From a virus (taxonomy: Duplodnaviria > Heunggongvirae > Uroviricota > Caudoviricetes), in IMG/VR virus record IMGVR_UViG_2617270988_000017: a stretch of DNA of 12,893 nt. One strand, 5' to 3'. The notes under the pieces are model-generated. The model had not been told where the DNA came from. It saw only the letters and a program-made list of their open reading frames with translations, and ran no database searches. The position numbers and the translations under genes are program-made. Shown piece after piece: positions 6,202 to 12,893 of this stretch. Within the stretch, counting starts at the first letter, position 1. Each line of letters begins with the position of its first letter.

Positions 6202-6474
6202 TTAGCTGTCCTGGTAATTGCGCCATATTTCATCACCAGCACCATCTATACCCATTTCGGCATAAGTGCGATCGACTGCCTTTTTCAGGTCTCCGAAATT
6301 ATCCGGCGGCTCCGGTGCCCTCTGTGCCTTCCTTGAACATTCCAGCCGTCGCATCGTGATGTGATGCCGTTCCTTGTCTGTCTCCACCAGCTGCATGACT
6401 TCACCCCATCGCGCCGCCGCCCTCCGGTAAAAGCCTTTCGCCTCCAGTTCCTCCGCTATGCGGTCATGTACCAT
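6202..6474 (-). CDS. PerC-family transcriptional activator-like protein, 90 aa
   Basis: Start MVHDRIAEELEAKGFYRRAAARWGEVM carries the PerC/Pch-type N-terminal motif as I recall it. ATG at 6474 has a strong SD (GAGGGGGTGA). The track's longer version overlaps ssb and is rejected. Confidence 0.65.
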   Translation of the reverse strand: MVHDRIAEELEAKGFYRRAAARWGEVMQLVETDKERHHITMRRLECSRKAQRAPEPPDNFGDLKKAVDRTYAEMGIDGAGDEIWRNYQDS

Positions 6475-6484
6475 CGTCACCCCC

Positions 6485-6895
6485 TCAGAACGAAATATCA
6501 TCACCGTAAGAGTCATCGCCTCCCGCTGGTGGCTGATTACCCTGTGTGCCTGTGGTTTTGCGTCTGTTCCCGCCTGGACGTGCCGCGCGGGCACTGATTA
6601 CGCTGTCTGCGATAACCTGCCAGCCCTGCCGCGTTTCTCCGTTCTGTCCGGTCCACTGGCTTACCTGCATCGTGCCGGATACGCTGGCAACATCGCCTTT
6701 TTGATGTTTAGCCAGGAAGTCGGCCTGTTTGCCAAATGCGATGACCGATAACCATAACGTCGCCTGTCCGTCCTGTGCCTGGCTGCATGGCAAAGATACC
6801 GCCATACGCGCCAGCGTCATCGGTGTGCCCTTGCTGGTCTGTTTTACCTGCGGGTCGTCCACCAGCCGCCCGTAAGCGGCTATCTGTGCCGTCAT
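6485..6895 (-). CDS. ssb: Single-stranded DNA-binding protein
   Basis: 136 aa with an OB-fold-like N-terminal region, a Gly/Pro/Gln-rich linker (GTQGNQPPAGGDDSYG) and an acidic C-terminal tip DDISF resembling the SSB DDDIPF tail. The start overlaps the upstream stop (ATGA). Confidence 0.85.
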   Translation of the reverse strand: MTAQIAAYGRLVDDPQVKQTSKGTPMTLARMAVSLPCSQAQDGQATLWLSVIAFGKQADFLAKHQKGDVASVSGTMQVSQWTGQNGETRQGWQVIADSVISARAARPGGNRRKTTGTQGNQPPAGGDDSYGDDISF

Positions 6896-7143
6896 AATTC
6901 CACCTCTCCGGTTTTAACGTTGATGGTTGTTACCTGTTCCGCTTCGGCAATCTCCCGTTCTGTCAGCGTGGCAAAGTTTGCCGCCGCCGTGGTCATGAAT
7001 GCGCTTATCAGGTCGGGATGTTCCTTCGCGTATCCTTCCCGCGTGTGGCGGTCTATCGTTCTGATTGCCACCTTTAAGGTGTGCTCAGTCATGTCTAACG
7101 CTTTATATTTTGGCTCTGTTCTGTCTCTGCGTTTTTGGGTCAT
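6892..7143 (-). CDS. Hypothetical protein, 83 aa, translationally coupled to ssb
   Basis: In-frame ATG at 7143 (MTQKRRDR...) with SD GAGAGG. The track start at 7173 is GTG and sits in the iteron array. The stop overlaps the ssb start. Confidence 0.5.
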   Translation of the reverse strand: MTQKRRDRTEPKYKALDMTEHTLKVAIRTIDRHTREGYAKEHPDLISAFMTTAAANFATLTEREIAEAEQVTTINVKTGEVEL

Positions 7144-7152
7144 TTCTCGCAA

Positions 7153-7348
7153 CCTCTCACTTTTTCGCCTCACTTTTTCAAGCGTCTCACTTCGTCGCAG
7201 TTGGGATTTTCGGTTTTTCTATGTGTGTGTTTCATAAGTATTTTTTTACCCCTCACTTTTGAGGATGTATACAGGTCGAAAAGTGAGGGAGAGCGGGCTA
7301 ATTTTGGCCCTCTTTCTATCCCCCTCGCTTTTGCTCCTCACTTTTATA
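7153..7348. repeat. Iteron array, putative origin of replication of the element
   Basis: CTCACTTTT-type repeats at 7156-7165, 7169-7178, 7186-7192, 7252-7260, 7278-7289 (inverted), 7323-7333 (variant CTCGCTTTT) and 7336-7347, plus an AT-rich stretch at 7230-7248. It lies immediately 3' of the rep gene, as is typical of satellite and plasmid origins. Confidence 0.55.
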
Positions 7349-8743
7349 GCGGCGCTACATCATCCCCATCGATACGAATAACCCCATCTTTTTCCAGCTT
7401 GTACAGCCAGCGCCGGAAGTTTTTCATTTCATACCCCAGCTTTTTCATGTCATCACGTAACAGCGGGATCGTGCACTTGTCGCCGTTCTGTGTGCGTGAA
7501 CGGATGCACCCCCATAGCGCGGTATGGTTTTCCGTCTTGTTCCCTGCCTCCTCGATGCGCTCCAGTTCAACAGGAGGGCGCGGATCATCCACCACCACCA
7601 GCGACGTGATTAATTCACCGTCAGCGTCGGTAAAAAGCTCCACCACGCGTAAGTCATATGCGGCTTCTTTGAGTTCCTCCGCGTCCTTCATTTTGGTGCA
7701 TGAGATAACCAGCGCTTCGCTTCCTGCGTCCTCCCTGCGTATCCGGTATTCAGCATCCAGCGAAGCACGAAATGCACTGGAACCGCGCGCGCCTTTCGTC
7801 TCATCCTTGCCGGAATGGTGAACCACCAGCACCGTGGCCCCTGTGCGTCGTTTCAGTTCGTCACAACCACGGATAAACGCCCCATATCACGGGAATCATT
7901 TTCATCATTCCCACCAAAGCAACGCGCCAGCGTATCCAGAATAATCATGCGTACAGGTTTACCCGTTTCCCGCTCCACCTGACGGGCAGCGATAACCATT
8001 TCATCAACATCAAGCGGGGCAGCCGGAAAGATGGGGCGGTTTACCAGATACAGATTTTTCACCTGCTCATCGTGCACAACCTCCCAGGCTTTTACACGAC
8101 GCGGAACACCTATACCGCCTTCACCAACCACATAGAGAACCGCACCATGTGCAACCCTGCGGCCTCCCCACTGGCGACCAGTGGCAACATGGCACGCCCA
8201 CGATCCGGCAAGGAATGATTTATAGGACCCGCTAGCCCCGTATATGCTGCATAGCGATACCGCCGGAATAATCCCCTTAACCACGTAATCCAGTTGCGTG
8301 TCGTATCCGGTAGATCCAACGCTCATCGGTAGCGTGGTTTTTCGCTGGTGGTTTTTTTCTTCCGCCGGCTCTTTCCCGCGCACCCGTTCCAGGTATTCGC
8401 GCCAGTTCTCCCGCATATGGCTGTGCATCCCTTCGGGGTAATAATTCGCATCAGTTACACCCGCCGCCGCCAGCTTGTGCGCAATGGCATTAATATTTGA
8501 TGGCCTGATGTGGCCTGCCTTGTACAGCCGGACACAATAGCGCCCCTCGTCGATGATTCTCAGGTCTGCCAGTTCATCCAGTTGATCATCAGCCAGCACA
8601 ACGGGAGGCACATTATCGCCAGCCAGTCGCCCGTCCTGTTCCTGCCACTGTTTCGCATGTGCCCAGGCATCACTACCCGCAAAAATAATGACTTCGGTCA
8701 TCTTGTCGTAAGGCTGTTTTTTTAAGTTCGGTGCGCTTTTCAT
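7344..8743 (-). pseudogene. Replication protein (primase/helicase-like, RepA-type P-loop ATPase with C-terminal winged-helix-like tail); reading frame interrupted near 7880
   Basis: The N-terminal ORF (8743..7853) has a Walker-A-like GASGSYKS and ILDTLARCFGG. The C-terminal ORF (7832..7344) continues in another frame with VVHHSGKDETKGARGSSAFRASLD, typical of RepA/AAA_25-like ATPases. The total span is 1400 nt, not a multiple of 3. The frames join if the G4 run (plus-strand CCCC 7880-7883) is G5, giving ...DSRDMGAFIRGCDELKRRTGATVLVVHH... Confidence 0.7.
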
Positions 8744-9501: not shown

Positions 9502-9715
9502 AACCCCCCCCATTTTCACAATCAGCAACAAGAATATTTTTAGCGTCATTCAGCGACCGCGTTGCGATGTATCGGATACATTCCAGGGCGAACTGTGTCC
9601 GGTCTTTCTGTTCTTCTCCCTGCGCAAGCTCTGCAGTGCATTCAATATCGATAAGCGCGTGCATCAGCGTAGTGAGCGCGTCGGCTGCTGCGTCCGGTGT
9701 GGTTTTATTGCACAT
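9494..9715 (-). CDS. Hypothetical small acidic protein, 73 aa
   Basis: ATG at 9715-9713 (MCNKTTPDAAADAL...) preceded by a strong SD (AGGAGGTG). It ends in NGGGYA encoded by a G8 run and overlaps the next start. Confidence 0.6.
   Translation of the reverse strand: MCNKTTPDAAADALTTLMHALIDIECTAELAQGEEQKDRTQFALECIRYIATRSLNDAKNILVADCENGGGYA
9504..9511. repeat. C8/G8 homopolymer at a gene junction
   Basis: Eight consecutive C on the plus strand (G on the coding strand). It encodes the GGG tail of the upstream ORF and lies 2 nt before the ATG of the downstream ORF. Confidence 0.9.
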
Positions 9716-9896
9716 GGCACACCTCCTGACGAATACGGGCGGCGAATACAGCAACACAACCGGACGGGCAACGGCTACGCGCTTCGCGTTCCGTCCAGGC
9801 GGTTACGTGGATGATTTGATGTTCTGACGCGCCAAAGATGATAAAGCGCCAGAGAAAGGCGGTTTGAGAATGTACAAGGGTAGGGATAGTAGCCAT
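9705..9896 (-). CDS. Small protein, 63 aa; possibly Icd-like (host cell division inhibitor family), tentative
   Basis: ATG at 9896 with SD GAGGAGG 8 nt upstream, TAA at 9707-9705. The WRF and FAARIRQ motifs resemble what I recall of Icd-like small proteins from P4-like islands, but this is unverified. A diverged tandem copy lies 369 bp upstream. Confidence 0.5.
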   Translation of the reverse strand: MATIPTLVHSQTAFLWRFIIFGASEHQIIHVTAWTEREARSRCPSGCVAVFAARIRQEVCHVQ

Positions 9897-10056
9897 GTTG
9901 GCAGCCTCCTCAGTGTGGTTAAGATAACCGCCACCGGAAACGCCAATTTCGCTGGTGGCGGACTGTACAGGGTTGGCGTAACCGGACACTGAAGAAACCG
10001 GCGCGGATTGCTCCGCCCCCGTACAGCCCACCATTGATAAGGTGTGACTATGCGGC

Positions 10057-10082
10057 ACAAAAAAACACGCGGGGCGCGTGTT
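10057..10082 (-). terminator. Strong Rho-independent terminator signature inside the upstream tandem copy
   Basis: Minus strand reads AACACGCG-CCC-CGCGTGTT followed by TTTTTTT (plus-strand A7 at 10059-10065). It is GC-rich with an uninterrupted U-tract. Confidence 0.65.
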
Positions 10083-10265
10083 ATGCGCTTCAGTTTTGCC
10101 CAGGACGCCAATCCCGGCACCCGTTTTATGAGGTGCGCGGGAATCATAGCTATTTTCGACACTGGCGATCAACTGGTTTTTTTCTCCGATATTCAGGGCC
10201 AGAAAACGCCACACAAAGGCCGTTTGTGTGTGTACAAGGTGTGGTATATGATTTACGGCAACCAT
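10083..10265 (-). pseudogene. Degenerate tandem paralogue of the 63-aa ORF (or translated leader); no in-frame stop before the terminator
   Basis: ATG at 10265 with SD AGGAG. The first 30 or so codons are homologous to the downstream ORF (PHLVHTQTAFVWRFLAL vs PTLVHSQTAFLWRFIIF) with synonymous and conservative changes. The frame then runs through the terminator without a stop, and a C-terminal-like motif (RVFLCRI vs AVFAARI) appears only in another frame. Confidence 0.35.
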
Positions 10266-10293
10266 AACGGCTCCTAGTTTACGTTGTTGGTTA

Positions 10294-10328
10294 GACGCCC
10301 CGTATGTGTTCCCAGCACTGCGGGGCGT
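10294..10328. promoter_or_regulatory. 8-bp inverted repeat ACGCCCCG / CGGGGCGT with a 19-bp spacer in the divergent control region
   Basis: Arms at 10294-10301 and 10321-10328, in the 5' leader of the minus-strand small-ORF operon and upstream of the RHH promoter. Confidence 0.4.
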
Positions 10329-10353
10329 TGATTTTTGTGTAATGGCAAGTACA

Positions 10354-10395
10354 ATGGTAATTACCATGTAGGTATAGTAATGAAGGGTAATTACC
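10354..10395. promoter_or_regulatory. Two GGTAATTACC operator-like palindromes at the RHH gene promoter
   Basis: Perfect 14-bp palindrome ATGGTAATTACCAT at 10354-10367 and GGTAATTACC at 10386-10395, centres 30 bp apart. The second abuts the RHH ATG. A TATAGT -10-like hexamer is at 10373-10378. Confidence 0.6.
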
Positions 10396-10569
10396 ATGTC
10401 AACACCATTAGAAAAACGTTCGCCTCCATACCAAATGCGATTACCGGAAGACTTCAGAGCGCAGCTAGAAGAAGCAGCTAAGGCCGATGGCGACACATCT
10501 TTAGCCACTTGGATTAAACGCGTTCTCCGCAAAGAATTACAGCAACGCGGCATAGAACCCAAAGGATAA
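10396..10569 (+). CDS. Ribbon-helix-helix (Arc/CopG-like) DNA-binding protein, 57 aa
   Basis: ATG at 10396, TAA at 10567-10569. The product MSTPLEKRSPPYQMRLPEDFRAQLEEAAKADGDTSLATWIKRVLRKEL has the typical RHH pattern (beta-strand YQMRLP, then two helices). It is absent from the ORF track because it is under 60 aa. Confidence 0.7.
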   Translation: MSTPLEKRSPPYQMRLPEDFRAQLEEAAKADGDTSLATWIKRVLRKELQQRGIEPKG

Positions 10570-10611
10570 AAACTATCAGCGCCGTGGTGTGAGGTATTAC
10601 GGCGCATTGCT

Positions 10612-10800
10612 ATGCAGGACAACACAATGACCGATAAAGAATTGACCAAAACATTATCACCGGCACGGAAAAGACGGCGCAGAAAGATAGAGCATGAATC
10701 AGAAAGATTCGCGCCATGTGCTTTTGCCCTTGAGCAATTCCTTAAAGAGTACAGGGAAAAGCGCTCATTGCAGGTATGGCAACGAACTGAACCAGACTGA
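10612..10800 (+). CDS. Hypothetical small basic protein, 62 aa, downstream of the RHH gene
   Basis: ATG at 10612 (alternative ATG at 10627 with AGGA upstream). It contains an ARKRRRRK basic patch. The coding call is weak. Confidence 0.4.
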   Translation: MQDNTMTDKELTKTLSPARKRRRRKIEHESERFAPCAFALEQFLKEYREKRSLQVWQRTEPD

Positions 10801-10894
10801 TTGCATTGCCCACCAGCCTGATAGCGGCTATCATCCCCGTGCTTATGTTTGGGATCACATACACATAAGGCGCAGCGGGTTAATTGTTCAGAAA

Positions 10895-10922
10895 GGCGGC
10901 TCCATATCGGGGCCGCTTTTTT
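10895..10922 (+). terminator. Rho-independent terminator between convergent alpA and the RHH operon
   Basis: Stem GGCGGCTCC (10895-10903) / GGGGCCGC (10909-10916) followed by T6 (10917-10922). Confidence 0.65.
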
Positions 10923-10948
10923 CGTGTTTGTCATATCTGTGATACCCG

Positions 10949-11651: not shown

Positions 11652-12893
11652 CTACACGGCTCGGATACCCCTTTTACCACTGGCGAGGGTTACGCCCGTC
11701 GCCGCAGCCTCGACAAATTCGCCCCACCAGCGCATCAGCACGATGCGTTTTTCTATGTAGTTGCTCCGGTTGTATGCCCGTCTAACTTCGTTGGTGTCGA
11801 CGTGGGCAAGTGCCGCCTCTATTACGTCCGGCTCGAATCCTTCCTCGTTCGCTGCTGTGCTGAATATGGCGCGTAATCCATGAGACACCAGCACGCCAGC
11901 GAATCCCATACGCCGCAATGCTGCGTTAGCTGTCTGGCTGTTCATCGGCTGCTGTGGGTCTTTCAGACTTGGGAAAACGTAATTGCGGTGGTGGCTGATT
12001 GGTTTCATGGCCTCCAGCACCGCCATAGCCTGACCGGAAAGCGGGATAACGTGATCCCTGCGCATCTTCATGCGTCCGGCAGGTATCGTCCATTGCTTCG
12101 CGTCCAGGTTGATTTCATCCCACCGCGTTGATGACGCTTCGGCGGGACGGGTTACGGTCAGTAACTGCCATTCAATCAGTAATCTGGTCTGCCGTTCTGT
12201 TGCCGATACTGATAAAGCCTGCATAAGCTCGGGCAGCTGTTCGGGGCGGATTGTTGGCATATGTTTTTTTACAGGTGAGGGAAACGCCTTACGCACATTC
12301 ATAGCCGGATTGGCATCAATCAGCCCACTGTTGGCGGCGTAATCCATTACCTCATTAACGCGCTGTAAAACCCGCTTGAGTGTTTCCAGGTTGCCGCGCT
12401 CCTTGATGGGGGTAAGCACTTCAACGAACCTTCGGGCGGTGAGGGTATCTATTGGCGTGTTGCCGATGAACGGGAATACATATTTATCCAGCGAACGCCA
12501 GATGTCTTTAATCGTGTTGGGGGCCAGATTCTGGCTGATTTTCACCTGGTACCATGCCGCCGCCACATTTTCGAACGTGTTCCCTTGTCTTCGGGCCTCT
12601 GTCTCTCTTTTTTGCCTCTCGTGGTCCTGCGGGTCAGTTCCGGCACTGATTAACGTCCTGTACTCGCTACGGCGTTTTCTGGCATCAGCCAGGGAAACAT
12701 CTTCAAGCGATCCAAAACTCAGCAATATTCTTTTTTTGTCCGATGGTCGGTAGTAGGAAAATCTCCAGAGTTTTGATCCAGACGGTTTGACCAGGAGAAA
12801 AAGCCCTCCGCCGTCCTGCAGGGTGTACTCCTTTTGCGCTGGTCTGGCTGCTTTGATCTGCACTGTGGTTAATGGGTGTGTTTTTCTCGCCAT
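11652..12893 (-). CDS. int: Site-specific tyrosine integrase, P4 family
   Basis: 413 aa with an N-terminal arm-binding-type region (KEYTLQDGGGLFLLVKPSGSKLWRFSYY) and a C-terminal catalytic domain (HGLRAIFST...RAYNRSNY). The ATG is at the last three bases of the window, so the upstream region and att site are outside it. Confidence 0.95.
   Translation of the reverse strand: MARKTHPLTTVQIKAARPAQKEYTLQDGGGLFLLVKPSGSKLWRFSYYRPSDKKRILLSFGSLEDVSLADARKRRSEYRTLISAGTDPQDHERQKRETEARRQGNTFENVAAAWYQVKISQNLAPNTIKDIWRSLDKYVFPFIGNTPIDTLTARRFVEVLTPIKERGNLETLKRVLQRVNEVMDYAANSGLIDANPAMNVRKAFPSPVKKHMPTIRPEQLPELMQALSVSATERQTRLLIEWQLLTVTRPAEASSTRWDEINLDAKQWTIPAGRMKMRRDHVIPLSGQAMAVLEAMKPISHHRNYVFPSLKDPQQPMNSQTANAALRRMGFAGVLVSHGLRAIFSTAANEEGFEPDVIEAALAHVDTNEVRRAYNRSNYIEKRIVLMRWWGEFVEAAATGVTLASGKRGIRAV

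Follow-up and report, generated by a model that had tools for sequence, protein, structure and literature searches.

A probable Rep-bound replication origin beside a frameshifted rep gene in an Escherichia coli satellite island

Positions 7153-7345 of the window, the whole 12,893-nt stretch of DNA analysed here, are in our assessment highly likely to be the vegetative replication origin of a Gram-negative phage-inducible chromosomal island (PICI) of the EcCIRM12579/EcCIRM13514 type, bound by Rep, which would load itself in the manner proposed below. The repeats, their anatomy, their conservation, their covariation with Rep and the winged-helix fold of the Rep C terminus were observed directly, and position and architecture, by analogy with published origins, point to a role as ori. 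The original prediction placed here an origin bound by its own initiator. It draws support from the anatomy of the region, the identity of the element as a PICI, the recurrence of the repeats in 59 of 72 related loci, their covariation with Rep and the precedent in PMC6092414. The kind of feature, and very probably the exact island type, has already been described, and the additions made here are modest: a one-residue/one-base covariation, a TA-rich centre between opposed iterons and a frameshifted rep. The known picture of PICI replication is unchanged. The gain for annotation is that a 200-bp ‘intergenic’ stretch can be assigned as the probable origin of a PerC-carrying satellite island, in a copy flagged as having a broken initiator.

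At one end of the window lies the 3′ end of phoQ (1-1461), at the other an integrase gene truncated at 12893. Complete E. coli genomes contain the same or nearly the same sequence as an 11-kb island between phoQ and roxA (ycfD), with the gene order int, AlpA-type HTH, Icd-like genes, DUF4222, ‘helicase RepA family protein’, a 200-bp gap, an 83-aa ORF, SSB, PerC, major capsid, decoration protein and small terminase. At the right-hand boundary of the island, the att core GGACATATTT (1460-1469) shares bases with the phoQ stop codon; its other copy must fall past the integrase gene, off the end of the window. In Fillol-Salom et al. 2018 (PMC6092414), EcCICFT073 and EcCIRM12579 (the latter in Table S1) are assigned to the ycfD-phoQ site with the same att core, and the EcCIRM13514 Pri-Rep is one of four alleles compared. 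The rep-ori stretch of the window is that of O145:H28 RM12761 except for one indel, the RM12761 Rep is the EcCIRM12579 Rep (WP_000833618.1), and strain RM13514 is among the genomes matching the rep-ori stretch at 100%. The att site and core, the gene order and the shared Rep thus identify the element as an EcCIRM12579/EcCIRM13514-like Gram-negative PICI. Related islands occupy a median of 2 and up to 12 places per E. coli genome, and pathogenic E. coli (O55:H7, O145:H28, O157:H7) commonly harbour the PerC-carrying island. Its PerC-family regulator gene lies at 6202-6594 on the minus strand (Pfam, E = 1e-42); PMC6092414 reports that LEE expression in pathogenic E. coli is modulated by PICI-borne PerC homologues.

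An iteron cluster between rep and the next gene

Seven iterons of the AAAAGTGAG type, five of them exact 9-mers, span 7153-7345, six in the sense of rep and one inverted. The exact 9-mer CTCACTTTT occurs five times in the whole 12.9-kb window, every time within 7156-7345, starting at 7156, 7169, 7252 and 7337 on the plus strand and occupying 7279-7287 on the minus strand; the variant cores CTCGCTTTT at 7324 and CTCACTTCG at 7186 complete the count of seven. With up to one mismatch allowed, the window holds 11 matches to CTCACTTTT compared with 2.83 ± 1.62 after dinucleotide shuffling of the window, and 0 of 200 shuffles reached 11. Five one-mismatch copies lie outside the region, scattered and at chance level. 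Read on the rep-sense (minus) strand, the repeat unit is a 12-mer of the form AAAAGTGAGGnn. Tandem Repeats Finder (TRF) detected no head-to-tail array in the region, so the repeats are dispersed iterons. The region contains no DnaA box (TTWTNCACA), and the window no second iteron cluster of the P4 crr kind, the exact copies being confined to one 190-bp cluster.

The iterons fall into two sets on either side of an AT-rich patch, at offsets from the rep stop of +1, +14, +56 (inverted) and +86, then, past the patch, +152, +169 and +182. The rep-proximal set (iterons 1-4, 7249-7345) begins with iteron 1 (AAAAGTGAGGAG in rep sense, 7334-7345, minus strand), which overlaps the stop of the rep frame at 7344-7346, and continues with iteron 2 (AAAAGCGAGGGG, 7321-7332, minus strand), whose core carries one mismatch, iteron 3 (AAAAGTGAGGGA, 7279-7290, plus strand), the only clear inverted copy, and iteron 4 (AAAAGTGAGGGG, 7249-7260, minus strand). 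The distal set (iterons 5-7, 7153-7194), all on the minus strand, comprises the degenerate iteron 5 (CGAAGTGAGACG, 7183-7194), iteron 6 (AAAAGTGAGGCG, 7166-7177) and iteron 7 (AAAAGTGAGAGG, 7153-7164). A candidate degenerate inverted iteron, AGTTGGGA, lies at 7199-7206 on the plus strand; it is weak, and Xenorhabdus relatives carry a clear inverted iteron at the same place (+137). The patch between the sets (7207-7248) has 65-75% AT in 20-nt windows and is the presumed DNA-unwinding region. Iterons 3 and 4 stand head to head and form a perfect 11-bp inverted pair with arms 18 nt apart, and a perfect palindrome, TGTATACA (7266-7273), sits midway between them. As an intrinsic terminator, the 11-bp inverted pair at 7250-7289 was ruled out because a T-run is absent after it on both strands; a terminator scan returned one terminator-like hairpin, which lies on the non-coding strand and is expected at that rate by chance.

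The first gene downstream of the origin is orf83, encoding an 83-aa hypothetical protein (6892-7143, minus strand) with its ATG at 7141-7143, and the SSB gene (6485-6895) follows it, two genes downstream of the origin. Iteron 7 ends 10 nt before this ATG, so its purine run probably doubles as the orf83 ribosome-binding site, a contact between the last iteron and the next gene that the original prediction had overlooked. Its description of the region is otherwise borne out: at least six repeats in both orientations had been claimed and seven were counted, the AT-rich patch it noted lies between the two iteron sets, and the placement between the rep stop and the next gene agrees with the coordinates given above. 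The long plus-strand ORFs drawn across the region had been dismissed as artefacts, and the RefSeq annotation of the identical sequence has no plus-strand gene there.

Conservation of the repeats and their covariation with Rep

Related rep loci were surveyed in one genome per species across the Enterobacterales, yielding 80 loci with Rep homologues of 50-72% identity, 72 of them usable. Loose matches to the iteron motif were counted in the 227 nt after the rep stop and in 2,509 control windows from the same loci. At least four iterons were found in 59/72 related loci and in 0/2,509 controls; the mean was 5.3 matches after the rep stop (72 loci) versus 0.25 in controls, in which the maximum was 3. 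Absence of the repeats from related elements with the same rep had been named as evidence against an origin; this check was run, and iterons at the same offsets were found in those 59 loci. Positions kept in relatives are about +2/+14, an inverted copy at +55 (+54 to +58), +84, the AT patch at +95 to +135, and +142/+168/+180. The AT peak is also kept, with a mean of 64-74% at +100 to +130 (66 related loci) versus 45-58% in the flanks. At the place of the palindrome, a strict match to YGTATAYA occurs in 28/74 related origins versus 29/9,885 background windows, and a TA-rich centre (YGTATAYA or TATA-type) is, judged by these comparisons, conserved whatever the iteron class.

A search for Rep in plasmids found no bona fide plasmid replicon, the matches being chromosome-like records, integrated islands and one 17-kb circular Klebsiella satellite record; in phages, Rep matches covered the helicase core only. 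The Klebsiella record (CP018459.1, Klebsiella pneumoniae pKp_Goe_795-4; locus L091) is a satellite-like circle of 16,971 bp deposited as a plasmid. It encodes an integrase, a DNA-binding regulator, a member of this Rep family (RK-S-F), capsid, head-tail adaptor, terminases and tape-measure, has GTGCGGC iterons in the same layout, and may be an excised, replicating island captured by the assembly.

The variable base of the iteron tracks, one-to-one across >80 loci, the residue that precedes a conserved F-x-R-W-L-x-K-L helix near the Rep C terminus. Reps with K-N-F at this place accompany GTGAGG iterons and those with K-N-M accompany GTGAG; K-H-F is paired with GTGGGGA, K-K-F with GTGGGGG and K-H-L with GTGGG; and RK-S-F and RK-G-F are paired with GTGCGGC and GTGCGC, respectively, the former including the Klebsiella satellite Rep. 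Pairing of Asn with adenine and of His or Lys with guanine agrees with common base-contact preferences. The clearest single comparison is between two Reps, P0047 and P0004, whose last 80 aa are identical except for N442H: the P0047 origin carries AAAAGTGAGG (A-type) iterons and the P0004 origin AAAAGTGGGG (G-type) iterons, at the same offsets.

Mosaic loci separate the repeats from the bulk of rep. Between L035 and the GCGG-class locus L029 the helicase core is 94% identical and the winged helix 56%, and the L035 iterons go with its winged helix; between L046 and L034 the core is 96% and the C-terminal part 57% identical, and the iterons differ. A larger exchange is seen against EcCICFT073 (L082): the two are homologous across perC-ssb as far as 7071 and again from 8597, with a gap at about 7072-8596. 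The exchanged block comprises the helicase and winged-helix part of rep, the iteron region and the first codons of the next ORF, and its EcCICFT073 counterpart encodes a P4-type primase-helicase (Pri-Rep) and carries unrelated GGTAGACAG-type iterons. As the block is swapped whole, initiator and repeats move as one unit. The first 50-130 Rep residues and the upstream DUF4222 gene are common to islands with RepA-type and P4-type helicases, so the N-terminal domain is a shared module fused to interchangeable helicase-ori cassettes.

In these sequence comparisons the covariation is partly confounded by phylogeny, but the N442H pair and the mosaics argue that phylogeny alone does not explain it. 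We lean slightly towards the view that origin specificity in RepA-type PICIs is set largely by the N-cap residue of the winged helix, in which N442 would read A, H or K would read G, and S or G would read C at the N of AAGTG-N-GG; that a single N-to-H change with the matching A-to-G change in all 8-11 iterons made separate replicon groups among near-identical islands; and that the orphan origin of the window could be fired in trans by any co-resident K-N-F Rep. A search of the accessible literature found no description of such a one-residue/one-base code. The comparison across the family provides a clean natural example of protein-DNA co-evolution in which one amino acid is matched to one base, repeated across all iterons, and could be used to predict cross-replication or exclusion among co-resident satellites and to design orthogonal PICI-based delivery vectors.

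Covariation and exchange also bear on other functions that such repeats could serve. They might be operator or activator sites of a promoter for the orf83-ssb-perC-capsid genes, bound by AlpA, PerC or a helper-phage factor and not by Rep: the region lies directly upstream of this gene block, its last iteron abuts the orf83 start, and repeats in both orientations are typical of operators too. However, no sigma-70-like promoter was found in a scan of 6900-7600, and GN-PICIs are described in PMC6092414 as transcribed in one direction, from the alpA promoter. Moreover, the sequence of the repeats follows a single Rep winged-helix residue and no other gene, and the repeats swap with the helicase and winged-helix parts of rep while the downstream genes and DUF4222 stay homologous. 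We judge an operator role improbable; Rep binding at the repeats may have a secondary regulatory effect. Still less credible, and in our view barely so at all, is a packaging (pac/cos) or recombination site recognized by the small terminase or by an integrase at arm-type sites. Sites of this kind are found in satellites, and the island has terS, but the att core is at the island end and terS 4 kb off, the repeats co-vary and travel with Rep whereas capsid and terS modules differ independently, and islands whose packaging genes are quite different have the same layout next to a Rep of this family. An origin recognized by Rep remains the preferred reading.

The Rep initiator and its frameshift

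Rep belongs to PF13481 (AAA_25; E = 5.9e-31), its sole family match. A PDB sequence search with Rep returned only RSF1010 RepA (1g8y, E = 0.005), and the winged helix and N-terminal domain matched nothing in that search. In a fold search with the whole-Rep model (pLDDT 66), the single match below E = 1e-3 was T7 gp4, at a low TM-score, which weakly suggests an SF4-like helicase. The C-terminal residues 401-466 of the intact protein, encoded at 7347-7544 on the minus strand, are modelled by AF2 as H-H-H-beta-beta with pLDDT of about 90, and include the recognition helix (443-452) and the specificity residue N442 of the K-N-F motif. The third helix of the domain starts at 443, which makes residue 442 its N-cap. 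The best fold matches of this segment are LexA, DtxR/IdeR, MarR-type, MCM and ORC winged-helix domains (TM 0.55-0.70, prob > 0.9); their E values exceed 0.01, so that the winged-helix class is supported and the assignment is generic, pointing to no specific homologue. The N-terminal ~130 residues form a separate confident domain common to other Pri-Rep alleles, on the basis of AlphaFold models and comparison. The E. coli allele has no recognizable primase domain, and a DnaG-like Toprim region is present in Xenorhabdus homologues. Xenorhabdus loci (L003-L021 and others) include many copies of these homologous Reps, of ~700 aa with the added Toprim region, and their origins have up to 10 iterons each, of the AAAAGTGAGGA type, with the K-N-F motif as in the E. 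coli island.

In the window, loss of one base from a homopolymer (G5) run disrupts rep: the run reads CCCC at 7880-7883 (minus-strand gene), whereas genomes encoding the full 466-aa Rep have CCCCC. The original prediction had missed this frameshift in the gene next to the repeats. The N-terminal fragment (296 aa, 7853-8743, minus strand) ends prematurely after the N-terminal domain and the Walker A/B part of the RepA-like (AAA_25) helicase, without the last helicase motifs and the winged helix; the latter is encoded in a severed C-terminal fragment of 162 aa that could start at an internal GTG (7344-7832, minus strand). Since several E. coli assemblies have both split proteins on record, the lesion is probably real; it might instead reflect a miscounted homopolymer during sequencing. 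The split leaves the origin without an intact cognate initiator in cis.

The sequence could accordingly be an origin by descent and a dead relic in this genome, its iterons merely uneroded, a reading we regard as possible though less likely than not to hold. The truncated helicase and the recurrence of identical split proteins in several E. coli assemblies speak for it, as do the many truncated members of the Rep cluster. Against it, genomes with an intact rep have exactly the same iteron region, the deletion could be a homopolymer sequencing error, and a same-class K-N-F Rep from a co-resident island could act in trans, given the multiple places that related islands occupy per genome. A relic would differ from the preferred reading in present activity, not in sequence identity, and is compatible with 7153-7345 being the origin of this island type.

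Proposed firing and comparison with described origins

As a mechanism we propose that Rep, built of an N-terminal domain, a RepA/DnaB-like RecA-fold helicase and a C-terminal winged helix, would bind the AAAAGTGAGG iterons through its winged helix after induction, with N442 reading the A of GTG-A-GG. With copies spaced at about 12-13 bp, close to one turn of the helix, protomers would line up on the same face of the DNA, and the two head-to-head iterons (7249-7260 and 7279-7290) would bracket the TA-rich centre. Rep on both iteron sets could then melt the intervening AT-rich patch and its RecA-fold helicase load itself as the replicative helicase, with SSB presumed to cover the single strands as they open. 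For the particular Rep of the window, these steps of binding, melting and self-loading are inferred. As this allele lacks a Toprim primase domain, priming would be left to the host or helper. With the cognate rep frameshifted, the origin could fire only with a same-class (K-N-F) Rep supplied in trans, a plausible situation, given the many genomes in which several related islands coexist.

The nearest described systems are the Gram-negative PICIs themselves. In PMC6092414, the PICI origin is the region directly 3′ of rep, and the GN-PICI ori consists of two iteron sets around an AT-rich region; a ts plasmid is maintained by the rep-ori segment of EcCICFT073, and deletion of rep or ori abolishes or reduces maintenance. 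The window has the corresponding features: a position 3′ of rep, two sets around an AT region, Rep-specific iterons and a C-terminal winged helix. With EcCICFT073 and its relatives it shares the island family, the ycfD-phoQ att site, and an ori 3′ of rep with two iteron sets and an AT region, followed by an orf and ssb. It differs from EcCICFT073, which has a P4-type, SF3-like Pri-Rep with primase_Cterm and GGTAGACAG iterons, in that its Rep is of the RepA/AAA_25 RecA-fold type, is matched to AAAAGTGAGG iterons and is frameshifted.

SaPI Rep helicases recognize iterons via their C-terminal WHD and self-load (PMC9371898). SaPI origins (Ubeda et al., as cited in PMC9371898) have 6-12 short iterons downstream of rep and a central AT region, and are served by a hexameric helicase-initiator with a C-terminal winged helix and no separate loader, a layout that resembles the window. 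However, SaPI Reps belong to the SF3 or MCM-like AAA+ ATPases and have iterons of 5-6 nt, whereas the Rep of the window is RecA-fold (SF4-like by its resemblance to RSF1010 RepA and T7 gp4) with iterons of about 10-12 nt. The two are without sequence homology, so the likeness would be one of working and not of family descent. In SaPIs, opposed iterons are the rule in both flanking sets; in the window, the left-hand set has one clear inverted copy (iteron 3) and the right-hand set just the degenerate candidate described above.

Iteron plasmids (pPS10/F/R6K Rep_3; RSF1010 oriV) similarly titrate their initiator on repeated sites beside an AT-rich unwinding element, and the helicase core of Rep is related to RSF1010 RepA. 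Rep_3 plasmids, however, have a WH1-WH2 initiator, tandem direct iterons of 17-22 bp and DnaA boxes; the window has none of the three, and its iterons are short, dispersed and in both orientations. RSF1010 iterons, for their part, are bound by a separate RepC and not by the helicase. A classical iteron-plasmid (Rep_3) origin was ruled out, as Rep matches AAA_25 only and neither a tandem array nor TTWTNCACA is present in the region.

P4 is likewise an enterobacterial satellite whose helicase initiator has a C-terminal origin-binding domain acting on short repeats (octamers in P4). It needs separated clusters, ori and crr, whereas the window has a single cluster of unrelated iterons, and P4 alpha is a primase-SF3 helicase whereas the Rep of the window is RepA-like. 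An origin of the P4 ori/crr type was ruled out on the single 190-bp cluster and the RepA-like Rep. A further likeness to P4 is that the island carries C4/isrK immunity RNAs and an AlpA/Vis-like regulator. Rfam places this P4-like RNA immunity pair on the minus strand, with the C4 antisense RNA at 9951-10038 (77.6 bits) and isrK at 10060-10136 (66 bits). A 409-aa ORF at 9705-10934 looks artefactual, because RefSeq annotates only short Icd-like genes there.
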